Shown: in pieces, positions 3,112 through 46,008 of the stretch | Layout: each line of letters starts with the position of its first letter | Position numbering within the stretch: the first letter of the stretch is position 1 | NCBI GenBank assembly: GCA_947457615.1 | Contig: CANGWK010000001.1 | Location: 79,044 to 143,043, forward strand | Length of the DNA stretch: 64,000 nucleotides | Reading direction: 5' to 3' | From: Flavobacteriaceae bacterium | GTDB lineage: Bacteria; Bacteroidota; Bacteroidia; Flavobacteriales; Flavobacteriaceae | Position numbers and translations under genes: made by a program | Notes under the pieces: generated by a model | The model's input: only the letters and a program-made list of their open reading frames with translations | Told to the model about the DNA's origin: nothing | Database searches by the model: none

Positions 3112-4347
3112 CTAAGTGTCTAATAACACTTTTGGAAAACAGACAAAATATTTGGTAACTGCTTTAGATAGAGCTCTTACCTGTAATTGATCTGATGAGT
3201 CTGATAAATTTTCAATCGTGTCGTCTTTTTTTAATATACTAATAGGTTCACTTTGCTTATTATATGCTTGATTTTTTAATTTTCCTTTAAAAACAAAATA
3301 GGCTGCTTCTTTGTCGGAAATGGAATACAAAGTAATTAATTTATTTTTATAGTTAAGTAATTTCTCCGTATCTGATTTTTCATCAAGCAGAATTATCTTT
3401 AATAAATCACGATTAATAATCATCTTACTTAGTGAACTTAACACAAAATCAGAATGGAATTGCCATGATTTTATTGCTCCCAAAACATCATAATCATCTA
3501 ATAATGCAAATATTTTCAATGCATCTTCATCGAACGAAGTTAGGGATATCTTATTATTTAAAAAGAAAGAAAGTGGCTCACTACAAGATAAAACAATGCC
3601 TCTTTGAGTCAACTCTTTGGCTCTTTTTAATATTTTAGTGAGTGTCATTTCTGCAACTACTGATGTTTTGTGAAGATAGACTTGCCAATACATAAGTCTT
3701 CTAGAAACCAGAAATTTTTCTACTGAATAAATTCCTTTTTCTTCAATAACTAATGCATCATTTCGCACATTCATCATCTGAATCAATCGGTCGCTGTTAA
3801 TATTTCCTTCCGCCACACCGCTATAAAAACTATCCCGTTTTAAATAGTCCATCCTATCCATATCAAGTTGACTGGATATTAATTGCAGCATAAATTTTCG
3901 ATGGTATTCTCCTTTAAAAATTTTAATGGCTAAATCTAATTTTCCTTCAAATTCATTGTTCAAAGCATTCATGAATATTAAGGAGATTTCTTCATGATGC
4001 ACCTCTTCCACTATACTGTTTTCCATAGCATGACTAAAAGGGCCATGGCCAATATCGTGCAATAAAATAGCTATGAAAAGTGCGTTTTCTTCTTCATTTG
4101 AAATTGCAATACCTTTAAAACGAAGTGTTTGTACTGCTTTTTGCATAATATGCATACAACCTAGTGCATGATGAAACCTAGTGTGGTGTGCACCAGGATA
4201 AACCAAATAGGACATTCCCATTTGGGAGATCCTTCGTAAACGCTGAAAATAGGGATGTTGAATTAAATCGTAAATTAAAATATTTGGAATTGAAATGAAA
4301 CCATATATAGGATCATTGAAAATCTTAAGCTTATTGGTATCACTCAC
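3112..4347 (-). CDS. HD-domain phosphohydrolase (dNTP triphosphohydrolase-like)
   Basis: DPIYG, FQRLRRISQMG, HTRFHHALG, LLHDIGHGPFSH, LDMDRMDYL; GTG start. Confidence 0.9.
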   Translation of the reverse strand: MSDTNKLKIFNDPIYGFISIPNILIYDLIQHPYFQRLRRISQMGMSYLVYPGAHHTRFHHALGCMHIMQKAVQTLRFKGIAISNEEENALFIAILLHDIGHGPFSHAMENSIVEEVHHEEISLIFMNALNNEFEGKLDLAIKIFKGEYHRKFMLQLISSQLDMDRMDYLKRDSFYSGVAEGNINSDRLIQMMNVRNDALVIEEKGIYSVEKFLVSRRLMYWQVYLHKTSVVAEMTLTKILKRAKELTQRGIVLSCSEPLSFFLNNKISLTSFDEDALKIFALLDDYDVLGAIKSWQFHSDFVLSSLSKMIINRDLLKIILLDEKSDTEKLLNYKNKLITLYSISDKEAAYFVFKGKLKNQAYNKQSEPISILKKDDTIENLSDSSDQLQVRALSKAVTKYFVCFPKVLLDT

Positions 4348-4496
4348 AAAAATAACTATTTAAGTTTACACAAATATAGTCATTTTTAAAAAAACAAACA
4401 AATAGTTTGTTTTACTACAAACAAGATAAGCAGCTATTGAAGATCTAGAGCATTAATTACTAATAAAGTCATTATTAATTTATAGTCTTAAAATTG

Positions 4497-4524
4497 AAAA
4501 AACCTGACTTGAAAATCAGGTTTT
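4497..4524 (-). terminator. Intrinsic terminator after the kinase gene
   Basis: AAAACCTGA-N8-TCAGGTTTT, with an A-run giving a U-tract on the minus strand. Confidence 0.7.
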
Positions 4525-4529
4525 AAATG

Positions 4530-5381
4530 TTAGTTATTAATTAAGTGGTAGGCAATTAAACCATCAATTGGTCTTCGTAGCACGTTACCAATTTTAATAT
4601 TGTGTTTGGTTAAAACTTCTATTAATTCTTCTTTTAAATAAAAAGCTATTGAACCTACAAAATGAACAGGTATTTTAGTATAATTATCAAATTGTTTTAT
4701 GTAATTTTCTACAAAATCCTCCATTTCAGCATAGATGTATTTTTTACAAAATTCGGTATCTTTATGTTTGATCAAAAATTTAGCAAACATTGCCAAATAT
4801 GCATTAGGATTTGGTTGTTTATATAGGTTATTTTTTATAAAATCGGCATCCAAATTATATTCTTCTTCAAATTCTGAAGCCAAATCTTTGGGCATTTTGT
4901 TAAAATAGTAACCACGTAATAAATGACGACCAAAACGGTTTCCAGCACAATCGTCCATTGCAATATATCCTAAAGATTGTACTTTTTGGTGCAGCACTTC
5001 TCCATCAAAATAACTACAATTAGATCCAGTTCCTAAAATACAAACAATTGCTTCTTCGTCTTTGGGTGTAGTAGCATAAACTGCTGCGAAAGTATCTTCA
5101 TGAACAGAAACAGAGGCATGAACAAAATATTCTTTGAATACTAAAGAAAGAAAATTTTTCATTCTGTCAGTTCCACAACCTGCGCCATAAAAAAATAAAT
5201 GAGTAGCTTTATCTTTATTGTGTGAAATATCAAATTTATCTTCCAAGCGGGTAACAATTTCTTCTTTATTTAAAACTTCGGGGTTTAATCCTAAAGTTTG
5301 AGTAGTGAAAAGCACTTTACCGTTATCATCAATTGCAATCCAATCGGCCTTAGTAGATCCGCTATCAACTAATAATTTCAT
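4530..5381 (-). CDS. BadF/BadG-type sugar kinase (N-acetylglucosamine kinase-like)
   Basis: LLVDSGSTKADW, FYGAGCG, CILGTGSN, SLGYIAMDD, HFVGSIA: ASKHA kinase motifs. Confidence 0.85.
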   Translation of the reverse strand: MKLLVDSGSTKADWIAIDDNGKVLFTTQTLGLNPEVLNKEEIVTRLEDKFDISHNKDKATHLFFYGAGCGTDRMKNFLSLVFKEYFVHASVSVHEDTFAAVYATTPKDEEAIVCILGTGSNCSYFDGEVLHQKVQSLGYIAMDDCAGNRFGRHLLRGYYFNKMPKDLASEFEEEYNLDADFIKNNLYKQPNPNAYLAMFAKFLIKHKDTEFCKKYIYAEMEDFVENYIKQFDNYTKIPVHFVGSIAFYLKEELIEVLTKHNIKIGNVLRRPIDGLIAYHLINN

Positions 5382-40237: not shown

Positions 40238-40333
40238 TGTTTTATAAAAACATATAATCTAAGACAATATCATCTAGTGTTAATTATGCTTATTTTTGCT
40301 GTAGAATTAAATAATAACTTAAATTTATATATT

Positions 40334-40969
40334 ATGTCTTTAGTAGGAAAACAATTCCCAAACATTACAGTAGATGCTATCTCTTTTATGGGAGATAACT
40401 TAAGAATTAACGTTCTTGAAGAAGCAACAAAAAACAAAAAAAAGGTAGTTTTATTTTGGTATCCAAAAGACTTTACTTTTGTATGTCCAACAGAATTACA
40501 TGCTTTTCAAGCTGCTTTACAAGAATTTGAAAAAAGAAATACTATGGTTATTGGTGCTTCATGTGATACTAACGAGGTACACTTTGCTTGGTTAAATACA
40601 CCAAAAAACAATGGTGGAATTGAAGGAGTAACTTACCCAATATTAGCCGACACTACTCGTAACCTATCCGCAGCATTAGATATTCTTGATGCAGAATGGG
40701 TTTATGATGAAGAATTAAATGACGAAATTCTTGAAGGATCTAATGTAACCTTTAGGGCTACTTATTTAATTGATGAAGACGGGAAAATTTTCCACGAAAG
40801 TGTAAACGATATGCCATTAGGTAGAAACGTTCAAGAATACATTCGTTTAGTAGATGCATATATTCACGTTCAAACTAAAGGTGAGGTTTGTCCTGCTAAC
40901 TGGGAAGAAGGAAAAGATGCAATGAATGCAGATAGAAATAGTACTGCTTCTTATTTAGCTTCTCACTAA
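40334..40969 (+). CDS. ahpC: 2-Cys peroxiredoxin (AhpC-type)
   Basis: WYPKDFTFVCPTE, GRN, GEVCPANW. Confidence 0.93.
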   Translation: MSLVGKQFPNITVDAISFMGDNLRINVLEEATKNKKKVVLFWYPKDFTFVCPTELHAFQAALQEFEKRNTMVIGASCDTNEVHFAWLNTPKNNGGIEGVTYPILADTTRNLSAALDILDAEWVYDEELNDEILEGSNVTFRATYLIDEDGKIFHESVNDMPLGRNVQEYIRLVDAYIHVQTKGEVCPANWEEGKDAMNADRNSTASYLASH

Positions 40970-41048
40970 TCAATAACAAAAATCAATTGCATTGTCAAAA
41001 TCAAATAATTGAAGTTTGACATTGCAATTGATATTTAATCTTAAAAAT

Positions 41049-41357
41049 ATGTTTTCAGAAATAGAACAAGATAATTTAGCAGAAGTAGTTGCATCAAATG
41101 AAGTAGTTGTAGTTCAATATGCTGCGTCGTGGTGTGGAAACTGCAGAATAATGAAACCGAAATTTAAAATGTTGGCTTCGCAAAATGAGGGAGTTCCGTT
41201 TTTAATTGTAGATGCTGAAAAATTCCCAGAATCTAGAAAATTAGCTAAAGTAGATAATTTACCAACTTTTGCGACTTTCAAAAATGGTATTTTAGTAAAT
41301 CAAAGTCAAACCACTAAAGTGGAAGTTTTAACAGAATTAGTTAATGAAGTAGTTTAA
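41049..41357 (+). CDS. Thioredoxin
   Basis: WCGNC, LPTF. Confidence 0.88.
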   Translation: MFSEIEQDNLAEVVASNEVVVVQYAASWCGNCRIMKPKFKMLASQNEGVPFLIVDAEKFPESRKLAKVDNLPTFATFKNGILVNQSQTTKVEVLTELVNEVV

Positions 41358-41710: not shown

Positions 41711-41755
41711 AAAAAAAAATCGCAAATAGAATAATTTTTATTTGCGATTTTTTTT
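41711..41755. terminator. Bidirectional terminator between convergent operons
   Basis: A9-TCGCAAATA...TATTTGCGA-T8. Confidence 0.85.
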
Positions 41756-41779: not shown

Positions 41780-42811
41780 TTAATGATAATACTTTTTCTT
41801 CAACCAAAATGCTACATTTACCAAGATAATTAACGCCGGAACTTCAACTAAAGGGCCTATAACTCCCGCAAAAGCTTGCCCGCTATTGATACCGAAAACG
41901 CCTATTGAAACTGCTATTGCTAACTCAAAATTATTTCCGGAAGCAGTAAACGAAATGGCTGCATTGTCCCGATAATCGGCTCCTACTTTTTTACCTACAA
42001 AAAACATTAGTAAAAACATAGTAGCGAAGAAAATTACTAATGGAATTGCGATTCGAATAACATCCAATGGTAATTGCACAATCATTTCGCCTTTCAAACT
42101 AAACATTACCACTATCGTAAAAAGTAAAGCAATTAAGGTTATTGGAGATACAAATGGTAAAAACTTTTGGTTAAACCATTTATCGCCTAAGAATTTCTTT
42201 ATTAAAAATCGGCTAGTTACTGCTAAAGCAAATGGTATTCCCAGGTAAATTCCAACCGTTGTTGCAATTTGAGATATTGTTATGTTTAATTCTAATCCTT
42301 TAATACCAAATAAAGGTAGCATTATTTCTAAATAAAAATAGGCATACAAACTAAAAAAAAATACTTGCAACAAACTATTTATTCCAACCAAACCAGCAGT
42401 TAATTCCCTGTTTCCTTCGGCTAGCTCATTCCAAACAATGACCATTGCAATACATGGTGCCAATCCAATAATTATTAATCCGGTCATGTATTCGGGATAG
42501 TCTTTAAGGAAGAAAATGGAAAGTAAAAACATTAAAAAAGGACCTACAATCCAGGTTATTATAAAAGATGCCAATAGAATTTTTGGCTTCTTAAACATTA
42601 ACGGAATCTTACTGAAATCCACTTTAGTTAATGGCGGATACATCATTAAAATTAAACCAATTGCCAACGGAATATTAGTAGTACCCGTAGAAAATGAGTT
42701 GATAAAATTTGCCGAATTTGGAATAAAATACCCAATACCAACTCCGAGAAGCATTGCTAGAAATATCCAAAGGGTTAAAAATCTGTCAAGGAAATTAAGG
42801 TGTTTTTTCAT
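41780..42811 (-). CDS. acr3: ACR3 family arsenite efflux transporter
   Basis: FLDRFLTLWIF, LMMYPPL, GLAPCIAMV, GNNFELAIA, GPLVEVP. Confidence 0.95.
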   Translation of the reverse strand: MKKHLNFLDRFLTLWIFLAMLLGVGIGYFIPNSANFINSFSTGTTNIPLAIGLILMMYPPLTKVDFSKIPLMFKKPKILLASFIITWIVGPFLMFLLSIFFLKDYPEYMTGLIIIGLAPCIAMVIVWNELAEGNRELTAGLVGINSLLQVFFFSLYAYFYLEIMLPLFGIKGLELNITISQIATTVGIYLGIPFALAVTSRFLIKKFLGDKWFNQKFLPFVSPITLIALLFTIVVMFSLKGEMIVQLPLDVIRIAIPLVIFFATMFLLMFFVGKKVGADYRDNAAISFTASGNNFELAIAVSIGVFGINSGQAFAGVIGPLVEVPALIILVNVAFWLKKKYYH

Positions 42812-42851: not shown

Positions 42852-43469
42852 TTAAATTGTAATAGTTATTTTAGAAAATACAAAATACATTTCGGATGCG
42901 ATTTCTAAACTGCGTTCGGCATATTTTTCATTCATTAAATCGGTTCCGTCAAAGGCTTTAGGGTCATTATATTTTATTGGAAATCGGGCTTCAGCACCAA
43001 AAACAATTGGACAACCTTCGTCGGCATTATTACATGTCATGATAGCGCCAAAGTTGTTTTTAGGATTAAATTCGTCATTATATGTTTTAGAAAAACATAT
43101 AATTGGCGCCTGATTTTCATTAAATTTTACAGCATAAACTGGATTATTTTCTTGACTTAATTTCTGAATTTGAAATCCTTGAATGCTTAAGGTTTCTGCT
43201 ACTTTAGGAAACATAGCTGTAGCCTCGGTGCCTCCTGAATAACAAAAAACTTTTGAGATCCCAAATTGATAAGCCATTGTTTGCGCCCATATTTGAGACA
43301 AATGACTTCTACGAGAATTGTGTGTGCAAATAAAATTTAATCGAATTTCTTGATTTATATCTACTTTACTTTGGATATAATCAATTAATGGTTTCAACAC
43401 TTCTTTTCGTTCTTCCGAAACAGAGATGTTAGAAATTAATTCTACTGTTTTTAATAAATTTGAATACAT
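42852..43469 (-). CDS. arsC: LMW-PTP-type (thioredoxin-coupled) arsenate reductase
   Basis: FICTHNSRRS (CX5R), SGGTE, MTCNNADEGCP, DPKAFD; located in the ars operon. Confidence 0.8.
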   Translation of the reverse strand: MYSNLLKTVELISNISVSEERKEVLKPLIDYIQSKVDINQEIRLNFICTHNSRRSHLSQIWAQTMAYQFGISKVFCYSGGTEATAMFPKVAETLSIQGFQIQKLSQENNPVYAVKFNENQAPIICFSKTYNDEFNPKNNFGAIMTCNNADEGCPIVFGAEARFPIKYNDPKAFDGTDLMNEKYAERSLEIASEMYFVFSKITITI

Positions 43470-43471
43470 AA

Positions 43472-44086
43472 TTAGTTTTTTTTAAAGGTGCAAAAAATAA
43501 AATTTTGAATAGTTTCAAATGGTGTTCGATGGTCTTCCGTAAAGCACTTGATTTTATTAAAATTGGTATTGAATATTCTCTCAAATTTAGATTCCGAATA
43601 TTGTATAACTTCAAGACCACTGCATTTTAAAGGTCCATTTTCAGAGAAAGTCCCAATGAATAAAAGGCCATTATTGGCAAGAGAATTGGAAACTAATTCT
43701 TGATAATTGTCTATTTCATTTTTGATAGTTAAGAAATGGAAACTTGCTCTATCGTGCCAAACATCAAAAGTAGTTTTTGGTTGAAAATCTAAAACATCTG
43801 AAACAATAAAAGTCACTTTTTCAGCTTCAATTCCTAACCTGATTTTTATTCTATCAATAGCATTTTGAGAAATATCTAATAAAAATAAATTACTAAATCC
43901 TAATTCTAACAAATTATCAATTAGGTAACTATCACCTCCACCAATATCTATTATTTTGGCATCTTTTGGAATGTCGTTGTCTAAAAAAAAATTAATTGAT
44001 GTTTGTGGTTTATTCTGAAACCAACTTACTTCTTTTTCTAGCTTAGAAGCAAAAACATTTTCCCAGTGTTCTTTTTTTAAAATCAT
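43472..44086 (-). CDS. Class I SAM-dependent methyltransferase
   Basis: HWENVF, VSWFQ, IIDIGGG, LLDIS, WHDRASFHFL, GPLKCSGL. Confidence 0.85.
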   Translation of the reverse strand: MILKKEHWENVFASKLEKEVSWFQNKPQTSINFFLDNDIPKDAKIIDIGGGDSYLIDNLLELGFSNLFLLDISQNAIDRIKIRLGIEAEKVTFIVSDVLDFQPKTTFDVWHDRASFHFLTIKNEIDNYQELVSNSLANNGLLFIGTFSENGPLKCSGLEVIQYSESKFERIFNTNFNKIKCFTEDHRTPFETIQNFIFCTFKKN

Positions 44087-44087
44087 A

Positions 44088-44564
44088 TTAACAACAATTG
44101 GAGTTCGGTGTACAACATGAATTTTCTTTTACCTTCCAATCCCCTATTTTGACTTTAAGTTTTTCTGGTGGAATACCGCATTTGTCTTTTGACAAACAAT
44201 CGGTTAATTTAGATACTAACTGAAATTTTGTTCCATCAAATTTTAGGTCAAATTTACCAATAGTTTCCTTCATTTGATATTCAACTTCAATTTCTAAATC
44301 AGAGATTTGCAATTTTTCTTCGGATAGTTCAATTATTTGAATAAATTTTTCAGAAAGCAAACGATGGTCAAAATCATTGGCTTCCCATAGTTGAAAATTA
44401 GCGACTTCTTCAAACCTAACAACTCCACCACAATCAATAAAATGTTTTGTTATTTTACCAACTTCGGTAATATGAAAATGACTTGGAACCAATTCACCAT
44501 CAGGTAATTGAAACGCAATTTGAGATAGTTTTTTTAATTCAGTTTTAATTTCAGATAGTCTCAT
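44088..44564 (-). CDS. DUF6428-like protein (ars-associated)
   Basis: VPSHFHITEVG, FIDCGG, IEVEYQ, TDCLSKDKCG, C-terminal SCCTPNSNCC. Confidence 0.7.
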   Translation of the reverse strand: MRLSEIKTELKKLSQIAFQLPDGELVPSHFHITEVGKITKHFIDCGGVVRFEEVANFQLWEANDFDHRLLSEKFIQIIELSEEKLQISDLEIEVEYQMKETIGKFDLKFDGTKFQLVSKLTDCLSKDKCGIPPEKLKVKIGDWKVKENSCCTPNSNCC

Positions 44565-44641: not shown

Positions 44642-44965
44642 TTAGCAACATTTGTTTTTTAATTGAATTGTAATAGAATTAAAATAATTCTCTATTTTTT
44701 TAATGATTTCTGGATTGATACAGTAACAAATTGCAGTTCCTTCAATAGTTCCTTTAATTATATTGGCATTTTTCAATTCCTTTAAATGCTGCGATATAGT
44801 TGGCTGCGCTAAAGGCAACTCGTTAACTATATCTCCGCAAATACAGCTATCTACAGATAATAAATAATCTACAATTGCTACTCTTGCGGGATGTGACAAT
44901 GCTTTAAATAAAGTTGCCATTTCTTTATTTTCTATAGAAAAAGATTCAGATTTAGATGCTCCCAT
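44642..44965 (-). CDS. arsR: ArsR/SmtB family repressor
   Basis: FKALSHPARVAI, CICGD, QPTISQHLKELK, YC, C-terminal CC. Confidence 0.93.
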   Translation of the reverse strand: MGASKSESFSIENKEMATLFKALSHPARVAIVDYLLSVDSCICGDIVNELPLAQPTISQHLKELKNANIIKGTIEGTAICYCINPEIIKKIENYFNSITIQLKNKCC

Positions 44966-44981
44966 GATTTTAATAATTACT

Positions 44982-45001
44982 ATATTGCAATATTACAATA
45001 T
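44982..45001. promoter_or_regulatory. Putative ArsR operator
   Basis: ATATTGCAATATTACAATAT, a 20-bp near-palindrome 17 nt upstream of the arsR start. Confidence 0.6.
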
Positions 45002-45128
45002 AATAACATTTTATCCAAAATAATAATGATAAATAGTAAGTGATATTCTTAAACAATATTCGTTAATTCATGTTCTAAATTCCTTAATATTTTTTACTAC
45101 TTTTGAACTTTATAAAAACACAAATAAA

Positions 45129-45626
45129 ATGGCTTCAATTACTTTAGGCGGAAACGCAATAAACACGAATGGTGAATTACCCTCAGTAGGAACTACCGCA
45201 CCCAATTTTCAATTAGTAAAAAACGATTTATCCGTTGTTTCGTTATCCGATTTCAAAGGAAGTAAATTAGTATTAAATATTTTTCCCAGTATTGATACAG
45301 GTACTTGTGCGACTTCGGTTAGAACTTTTAACTCTAATGCAAGCGCCTTAGATAATACCAAGGTTCTATGTATTTCTAGAGATTTACCTTTTGCTCAAAA
45401 ACGTTTTTGTGGTGCAGAGGGTCTTGAAAATGTTGTGAATTTATCTGATTTTAATACCGGTAGTTTTGGTAAAGATTATGGCTTAGAAATTGTTGATGGT
45501 CCTTTGGCAGGTCTTCATTCTAGAGTAGTTATAGTTTTAGATGAAAACGGTTCCGTAAAATATACTGAACAAATTAGCGAGATAGCAGACGAACCAAATT
45601 ACCAAGCTGCATTAGAATCACTATAA
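45129..45626 (+). CDS. tpx: Thiol peroxidase
   Basis: FPSIDTGTCA, SRDLPFAQKRFC, EPNY. Confidence 0.96.
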   Translation: MASITLGGNAINTNGELPSVGTTAPNFQLVKNDLSVVSLSDFKGSKLVLNIFPSIDTGTCATSVRTFNSNASALDNTKVLCISRDLPFAQKRFCGAEGLENVVNLSDFNTGSFGKDYGLEIVDGPLAGLHSRVVIVLDENGSVKYTEQISEIADEPNYQAALESL

Positions 45627-45636
45627 TATTTGTATT

Positions 45637-46008
45637 ATGGAATTTGAAAGAGATAGAAATTTTTTTACCGGTAGGTTTAAAAGTATTGGCTTTGCGTTAA
45701 AAGGAGCCCTAAAACTTATTACTACCGAGCACAGTATTATGGTGCAAACTTCTATTGGAACCTTAATGGTAATTGCTGGTTTTTACTTTCATATTTCTCA
45801 TGTCGAATGGATGATTCAAACTCTAGCAATAGGCTTTGTTCTAGGAGTAGAAGGAATAAATACAGCCGTTGAAAAAGTAGCCGATTTTATCCATCCTGAA
45901 TTTCATAAAAAAATTGGATTTATAAAAGATATTGCGGCTGGCGCTGTATTCTTTGCTGCATTAACTGCAGTTGCAATTGGCTGTATGATATATATCCCTA
46001 AAATATAA
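45637..46008 (+). CDS. dgkA: Diacylglycerol/undecaprenol kinase family protein
   Basis: EGINTAVEKVAD, KDIAAGAV; 3 TM. Confidence 0.85.
   Translation: MEFERDRNFFTGRFKSIGFALKGALKLITTEHSIMVQTSIGTLMVIAGFYFHISHVEWMIQTLAIGFVLGVEGINTAVEKVADFIHPEFHKKIGFIKDIAAGAVFFAALTAVAIGCMIYIPKI

Follow-up and report, generated by a model that had tools for sequence, protein, structure and literature searches.

The stretch of DNA analysed here (the window, 64,000 nucleotides of contig CANGWK010000001.1 from a Flavobacteriaceae bacterium) contains an arsenic resistance (ars) operon in which a small class I S-adenosylmethionine (SAM)-dependent methyltransferase (MT; 204 aa, ATG start, 43472-44086) is encoded together with the usual repressor, arsenate reductase and arsenite pump. 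The five genes of the operon are co-oriented on the minus strand. The first encodes an ArsR/SmtB repressor of 107 aa (44642-44965; NF033788, 71 bits) whose translation has a C41-x-C43 pair in the DNA-binding region, at the As(III)-binding position of classical ArsR proteins, and a C-terminal CC. It is followed by a DUF6428 protein of 158 aa (44088-44564; PF20001, 215.6 bits) with conserved His and Cys residues and a Cys-rich C-terminal tail, by MT, by ArsC, a long-form LMWP-type arsenate reductase of 205 aa (42852-43469), and by the arsenite efflux permease Acr3 of 343 aa (41780-42811; TIGR00832, 420.6 bits against a cut-off of 282.8). ArsC gives weak matches to LMWPc and TIGR02691, and its translation contains a C48-X5-R54-S P-loop and a C-x-x-A-D-x-x-C-P motif. 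The open reading frame list and the sequence confirm the order arsR-DUF6428-MT-arsC-acr3 given in a preliminary description of this DNA, as well as the very short gaps on both sides of MT, with a single base (44087) between the DUF6428 stop and the MT start and two bases (43470-43471) between the MT stop and the arsC start.

An inverted repeat of 15+15 nt (44977-45006; 87% complementary, no spacer) lies directly upstream of arsR and is a candidate ArsR operator, a hairpin terminator (41712-41755) in the interval from acr3 to the converging upstream gene closes the operon, and no internal terminator-like site was found from arsR to acr3. Taken together, these signals make the unit look like one As(III)-responsive transcript, and the co-orientation, close spacing, CxC pair of ArsR, arsenate reductase and arsenite carrier are those of an ars operon. 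The operon is therefore predicted to be induced by As(III), which would release ArsR from the palindrome; the five genes would then be transcribed as one unit and MT translated in step with arsC, as the anatomy of the locus and its conservation indicate.

Distribution of MT in ars operons

A species-level survey by protein search found 44 loci, 24 of which have arsR-(DUF6428)-MT-arsC-(acr3) on one strand; in six Mucilaginibacter loci, MT is located near a divergent acr3-DUF6428-arsR cluster, about 1.1 kb away in four of them. The genus survey covered 200 Flavobacterium genomes, of which 69 carry the MT family, and examination of the 60 best places for context showed MT within an ars operon in 28, including 27 of the 28 copies with at least 58% identity to the window MT. 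These frequencies, which the preliminary description had proposed to check, run counter to a family that is rarely ars-linked. A tree built from 158 copies gathers most of the ars-linked ones (47 of 60) in a single clade of 48 (SH-like support 98). The spacing is kept as well: a long LMWP-type arsC follows MT in 33 related loci, the projected gap between the two genes has a median of 2 bp and is at most 9 bp in 29 of 33 loci, and the gap between DUF6428 and MT has a median of 9 bp. The linkage of MT to ars genes is far beyond chance.

DUF6428 was present in 167 of the 200 Flavobacterium genomes and ars-embedded MT in about 28 (~14% of the genomes sampled), always in the same slot, so that MT is an optional insert found in roughly one sixth of such operons. 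Nonetheless, MT is very probably a genuine, conserved accessory enzyme of ars operons, and in the Flavobacteriaceae subclade that includes the window copy it is best explained as having become a fixed part of DUF6428-type ars operons, under the control of ArsR. The conserved clade, the kept spacing and two independent fusions to ArsC, described below, bear out that MT is a real member of the operon and not a passenger. Known ars accessory genes do not cover all the genes found in ars operons, among which MT recurs as a candidate beyond Proteobacteria and Firmicutes. We found no description of the MT gene in the literature on DUF6428, on methyltransferases of Bacteroidetes ars operons or on fusions of ArsC to methyltransferases, and it is credible that MT is an undescribed arsenic-resistance gene. 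Thus, of the earlier proposal that MT is a new ars accessory gene for metalloid or thio-arsenical methylation, the first part is upheld by the recurrence of MT in these operons and by the lack of a description of it in the arsenic papers searched, but the proposed substrate is only partly supported and is weighed below.

DUF6428 is itself the constant second gene of these operons. Its residues H31, C45, H67, C123, C129, C151, C157 and C158 are invariant, and the protein ends in a disordered, Cys-rich tail. The core is modelled confidently (predicted local distance difference test, pLDDT, ~90) and matched no solved fold among 48,161 chains (best Z 3.2). DUF6428 may be an undescribed arsenic-binding protein.

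Family, conserved residues and fold of MT

The Pfam models that match the window MT are generic methyltransferase models, all above gathering: PF13847 (34.9, cut-off 27), PF08242 (32.9, cut-off 30) and PF13649 (30.9, cut-off 27). Neither the ArsM models nor those of TPMT (PF05724) and TehB (PF03848) matched it at E <= 0.01, and PF01209 (UbiE) gave no match. The class I signature is complete, with D47-x-G49-x-G51 and D71 conserved in at least 97% of relatives. W8, W22, D47-x-G49-x-G51, D71, W110-H-D-R-A114, F116-H117-F118-L119, Y128, G151-P-x-x-C155-S-G157, H186-x-T-P189, Q194 and F196 are each kept in at least 90% of the more than 110 representatives compared (33-54% identity). MT has three Cys residues (155, 181 and 199), and only C155 is conserved throughout the family, C181 and C199 varying with Ser.

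The AlphaFold2 model of MT (pLDDT 96.7) has no transmembrane helix in its secondary structure and adopts the seven-stranded methyltransferase fold, with Z above 18 to 50 solved methyltransferases. Sequence and fold searches of the PDB retrieved only generic small-molecule methyltransferases, and a search of the ESM Atlas only unnamed methyltransferase clusters. The best match by both sequence (E 2.8e-4) and structure is a Methanosarcina acetivorans protein (6mro/8gdu), a structural-genomics target of uncharacterised function; 6mro superposes with Z 22.7 and a root-mean-square deviation of 2.2 over 184 residues at 23% identity, and it differs from MT in having neither the WHDRA nor the GPxxCSG motif in the aligned segments. 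Other fold neighbours are Htm (Z 22.0), Ecm18 (Z 21.2), the halide methyltransferases 8ajp (Z 20.9) and 3lcc (Z 18.8), TPMT (3bgd, Z 19.7) and TehB (3m70, Z 18.5). The nearest structures are all only 11-23% identical to MT, so the fold points to a small substrate and no further. The resemblance to TPMT and TehB in the preliminary description is borne out in part, as a generic one: there is no Pfam match, their Z scores are below those of 6mro and several unrelated small-molecule methyltransferases, and they rank 11th and 26th, respectively, amid many unrelated methyltransferases. From the fold topology, C155 would lie at an active-site position, on the loop that follows strand 5, and H111, H117 and H186 probably occupy active-site positions too.

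MT is best explained as a cytosolic SAM-dependent small-molecule methyltransferase of a very large uncharacterised family, which comprises 3835 clusters of a 50%-identity library at E <= 0.001 and 340 at E <= 1e-30. The genome of the window encodes one further, distant relative of MT on another contig (L126, G000:C9:39515-39979; 29% identity, E 8e-8).

Like ArsM/AS3MT, MT is a class I SAM methyltransferase of ArsR-controlled ars operons with a Cys in the loop after strand 5. However, MT is ~70-150 aa shorter, has no C-terminal ArsM domain and has one conserved Cys, whereas ArsM has three or four that serve As(III) binding or redox chemistry. Membership of the ArsM family was rejected on these Cys residues and on the absence of a match to the ArsM hidden Markov models (HMMs). 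The earlier assignment as a non-ArsM methyltransferase agrees with these results, since only generic class I models match and a single Cys is conserved.

All of the conserved residues are retained in the relatives (43-57% identity) that fall outside the ars clade. Ars-linked and other copies are separated at position 99 only (L and T, respectively), and C181 and C199 occur with equal frequency in the two groups; the possibility that these two residues complete an As-binding triad that marks the ars clade was rejected on this ground. The family reaches Actinomycetota and Acidobacteriota, with members in Pseudonocardia, Acidimicrobiales, Chloracidobacterium and Proteobacteria. In Chloracidobacterium, the locus holds ArsR-like, rhodanese, TauE, PDO-rhodanese and MT genes, followed by a methionine-gamma-lyase-like gene, and the layout in Mucilaginibacter is similar, with a YeeE-type sulfur transport gene and a TlpA-like reductase in addition. 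The Runella slithyformis plasmid pRUNSL04 (L195) has TauE, two PDO genes, TrxA, two methyltransferases, cytochrome c and DsrE, and an Acinetobacter plasmid from an antimony mine has a DUF442/FAD oxidoreductase, TauE, cytochrome bd (CydAB) and MT. The two methyltransferases of the Runella plasmid (L195:4330-5603) are different class I enzymes in tandem, the second being of the MT family. Overall, the sulfide and persulfide clusters of the relatives include SQR-like, PDO, TauE, rhodanese, DsrE and methionine-gamma-lyase-like genes, other relatives are found in thiophilic-metal efflux contexts (Zn/Cd or Cu P-type ATPases, CusB-like proteins), and the neighbour tallies are topped by P-type ATPase, HMA, rhodanese, MBL and Sulf_transp. 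Fusions within the family join MT to rhodanese (P0312, P0398), to ArsR and rhodanese (P0188), to an ArsR helix-turn-helix (HTH) domain (P0178) and to a GNAT domain.

Association of MT with ArsC and with ArsM

The ars clade has two operon forms. The first is that of the window, with a long ArsC and acr3, and the second is arsR-DUF6428-MT-arsC followed by a gene for a DoxX-like small membrane protein, with no acr3 and with a canonical thioredoxin-type ArsC of 139-156 aa (~148 bits on TIGR02691). The second form was found at L134 (2947-5483), L139 (3084-5557), L128, L135, L140, L145 and L154. Two of these genomes (L139, at 3572-4606 on the minus strand, and L140) and one protein-database entry (P0410) have MT and the thioredoxin-type ArsC fused into a single protein of 344 aa, while two other database entries (P0411 and P0412) have the reverse domain order, ArsC-MT, in 341 aa. 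The opposite domain orders imply two independent fusions, which are the strongest evidence that MT works together with arsenate reductase, and functional coupling of MT to ArsC is the best explanation of the data.

A genuine ArsM is encoded in the same ars operon as MT at L010 and L060 (353 and 371 bits, cut-off 263), and L052 has a similar operon. The operons that hold both enzymes extend over 4558-7221 of L010 (Chryseobacterium sp. R2A-55) and 5992-9264 of L060, and in the Chryseobacterium operon ArsM occupies the slot taken by DUF6428 elsewhere. Since ArsM and MT are found in the same operon, the two enzymes are unlikely to share one job. No ArsM was found in the genome of the window, and only 4 of the 200 Flavobacterium genomes have one, a number so small that a test for anti-correlation between MT and ArsM in the genus is without power.

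Candidate substrates of MT

The occurrence of an identical active site in arsenic, sulfur and metal contexts, together with the presence of ArsM beside MT, argues against plain arsenite methylation and favours a sulfur or generally soft nucleophile. Our tentative proposal, which draws on gene context, is that MT may be induced by As(III) and S-methylate sulfide or small thiols. SAM would be bound through D47-x-G-x-G and D71, as sequence and fold indicate, and the methyl group would be transferred to a small soft nucleophile in a pocket whose position is suggested by the class I fold. In this pocket, the conserved Trp residues near the N-terminus would come together with the loops that follow strand 4 (WHDRAxFHFL) and strand 5 (GPxxCSG) and with the HxTP...Q hairpin. 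The nucleophile could be inorganic sulfide, a persulfide or a small thiol, with chemistry as in the Mdd enzymes, which convert H2S to methanethiol and methanethiol to dimethylsulfide. Within an ars operon, MT would then clear or convert the reactive sulfur that accompanies arsenic, such as sulfide, thio-arsenic species and sulfane sulfur.

The Mdd enzymes are the closest known systems for such a role. MddH, MddM1 (210 aa) and MddM2 (204 aa) are small SAM-dependent S-methyltransferases for H2S and methanethiol (PMC11445057; PMC12904073, Guo et al. 2025), and mddH is located among metal-resistance genes (PMC11445057, Zhang et al. 2024), a situation comparable to that of the MT paralogues beside metal pumps. 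Their substrates likewise fit the MT relatives that adjoin sulfide-detoxification and methionine-gamma-lyase-like genes. MddH is a UbiE-family protein (COG2226), 37% identical to UbiE of E. coli, and its members are more than 45% identical to it, whereas an indirect comparison of MT with UbiE of E. coli K-12 by BLASTP gave E 1.5 over 13 residues; identity of MT with MddH is thus very unlikely. MddM1 is a cytosolic protein of COG2227 type (UbiG) that is said to be present in more than half of Actinomycetota and occurs also in Acidobacteriota and Proteobacteria (PMC11445057, PMC12904073). MT is similarly a small soluble class I methyltransferase (204 aa against 210 aa), a likeness in description, and the JGI names in its family mostly carry the COG2227 label, with taxa that include Actinomycetota and Acidobacteriota, which is compatible with membership but no proof of it. 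The verified MddM1 proteins include PP661493, F2RA35, A0A6S6P9F0, WP_126557608.1 and MDE3069982.1, and in that paper homologues had to reach E <= 1e-30 or 1e-55 with an identity of 40% or more. None of the 409 proteins compared here matched the peptides that the primers of the MddM1 paper encode (N-termini, C-terminus and internal). Unlike MT, no Mdd enzyme has been reported in an ars operon or fused to ArsC.

Several observations weigh against sulfide or thiols as the substrate. Protein fusions usually join consecutive steps, and the double fusion to arsenate reductase, which has no obvious reason in a sulfide methyltransferase, favours As(III) as substrate. Of the eight genomes with the second operon form (completeness 69-99%), seven yielded no Acr3, and the five searched for ArsB yielded none, so that MT itself could dispose of As(III) there. 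A metagenomic representative of 459 aa (P0251) has an ArsM-like domain fused to MT; this domain scores 173 bits on NF008823, below the cut-off, and has Gly in place of the strand-4 Cys of ArsM. Some relatives carry an ArsR HTH domain, and in a wider metagenome sample the neighbourhoods were very mixed (182 Pfam families among 150 neighbours); the sulfur signal around MT is recurrent, not universal.

Some of these observations also underlie the main alternative, that MT methylates arsenic itself, MT and ArsC together being a split, cysteine-poor counterpart of ArsM, in which ArsC would supply As(III), and perhaps also return pentavalent methylated intermediates to the reduced state, while MT transfers the methyl groups. 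Besides the fusions in both domain orders, P0251 and the pump-less genomes, this alternative gains from the position of MT within the ars operon, 0-5 bp from arsC in most loci, from the rarity of ArsM in the genus and its absence from the window's genome, and from the predicted active-site position of C155. However, MT has that one conserved Cys, and to our knowledge no As(III) SAM methyltransferase has been characterised that does without at least two As-binding Cys residues; C181 and C199, being variable and no commoner in ars-linked copies, do not supply them. No active-site change sets the ars clade apart from relatives in sulfide and metal clusters, and MT would be redundant in the three operons that it shares with a bona fide ArsM. 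The pump-less genomes are also less telling than they appear. Acr3 was found in 8 of 10 MT-less control genomes, but the two in which it was not detected (G015 and G025) have a bare arsR-DUF6428-arsC operon, so the pump-less design is independent of MT, and its value as proof of arsenic methylation is weakened. We consider direct methylation of arsenic somewhat unlikely. As regards the metalloid or thio-arsenical substrate proposed earlier, the ArsC fusions leave room for one that contains arsenic; the residues shared with sulfur and metal relatives and the co-occurrence with ArsM speak against plain methylation of arsenite.

The minimal arsR-DUF6428-arsC operons (L199:3609-5019 and L200:3611-5017) lie in two 99%-complete Flavobacterium genomes in which Acr3 was not found, where arsenate would be reduced without a recognised exit for arsenite.

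A further reading, which overlaps with the others and is rather doubtful as a whole, is that MT and ArsC jointly provide an undescribed, pump-independent disposal of arsenic via methylated or methylthio-arsenic species. In one version, the cysteine-poor MT may transfer the methyl group while the thioredoxin-coupled Cys cascade of ArsC does the reductions that are internal to ArsM; in the other, MT may make methanethiol or S-methylate thio-arsenic or persulfide species, and As(III) would escape from the cell in the form of neutral, volatile methylthio-arsenicals. Each version would account for the ArsC fusions, the acr3-less operons of genomes in which neither Acr3 nor ArsB was found, and the co-occurrence with ArsM.

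It is unlikely that MT merely rides under ArsR control and serves to detoxify a wide range of other soft nucleophiles (selenide, telluride, Sb(III), halides or thiocyanate). TehB, bacterial TPMT and the halide/thiol methyltransferases methylate small soft nucleophiles (Te/Se species, HS-, halides), and the TehB, TPMT and HOL/HMT structures resemble MT in their compact fold, which includes a lid at the N-terminus (Z 18.5-20.9). The aromatic-rich conserved residues of MT would suit a small-anion pocket, some relatives give sub-threshold matches to the TPMT or TehB Pfam models, and paralogues adjoin Zn/Cd and Cu pumps. Nevertheless, identity to these enzymes is 11-16%, the WHDRAxFHFL, GPxxCSG and HxTP signature is peculiar to the MT family, the window MT itself has no TPMT or TehB match, and their folds, like those of the halide methyltransferases, rank no higher than many unrelated methyltransferases. 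Such a role would also leave the ArsC fusions and the sulfide-oxidation contexts unexplained.

The suggestion that MT is not a detoxification catalyst, being a SAM/S-adenosylhomocysteine (SAH)-sensing module comparable to SahR-type ArsR-MT regulators, a protein-modifying module or a neutral hitchhiker, can draw on its optional presence in ars operons, on the ArsR-HTH-MT fusions P0178 and P0188 and on known ArsR-methyltransferase fusions that head met operons (ArsRM, PMC10190100), but it is very improbable. At 33-54% identity, the SAM-binding and pocket residues are conserved to a degree that suits an enzyme acting on one particular small molecule, reading frames are intact in the many species over which the clade extends, and the two fusions to an enzyme point to a joint role in metabolism. 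For ArsRM, the ArsR-methyltransferase fusion of Brevundimonas sp. M20, methylation of arsenite has been reported on the basis of a coupled kit assay of SAH release (PMC10190100). By description, ArsRM resembles the MT family in that ArsR is linked, as in P0178, to a methyltransferase domain of ~200 aa that is not ArsM, and it differs from MT in heading a met operon.

If MT methylates sulfide or thiols, arsenic resistance would be linked to the handling of reactive sulfur and to methanethiol and dimethylsulfide production in freshwater Bacteroidota, and a very large uncharacterised methyltransferase family would gain a physiological setting. If instead it methylates arsenic, it would represent a second, ArsM-independent route that environmental surveys based on arsM have missed.

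The window operon also has redox genes on both flanks. A peroxiredoxin and a thioredoxin are encoded downstream (40277-41357), and a thiol peroxidase (Redoxin) and a diacylglycerol kinase upstream (45129-46008). The same redox flanks recur around the ars operon in other Flavobacterium genomes (L134, L139 and L154), and the thioredoxin that adjoins the window operon could be the reductant of ArsC.

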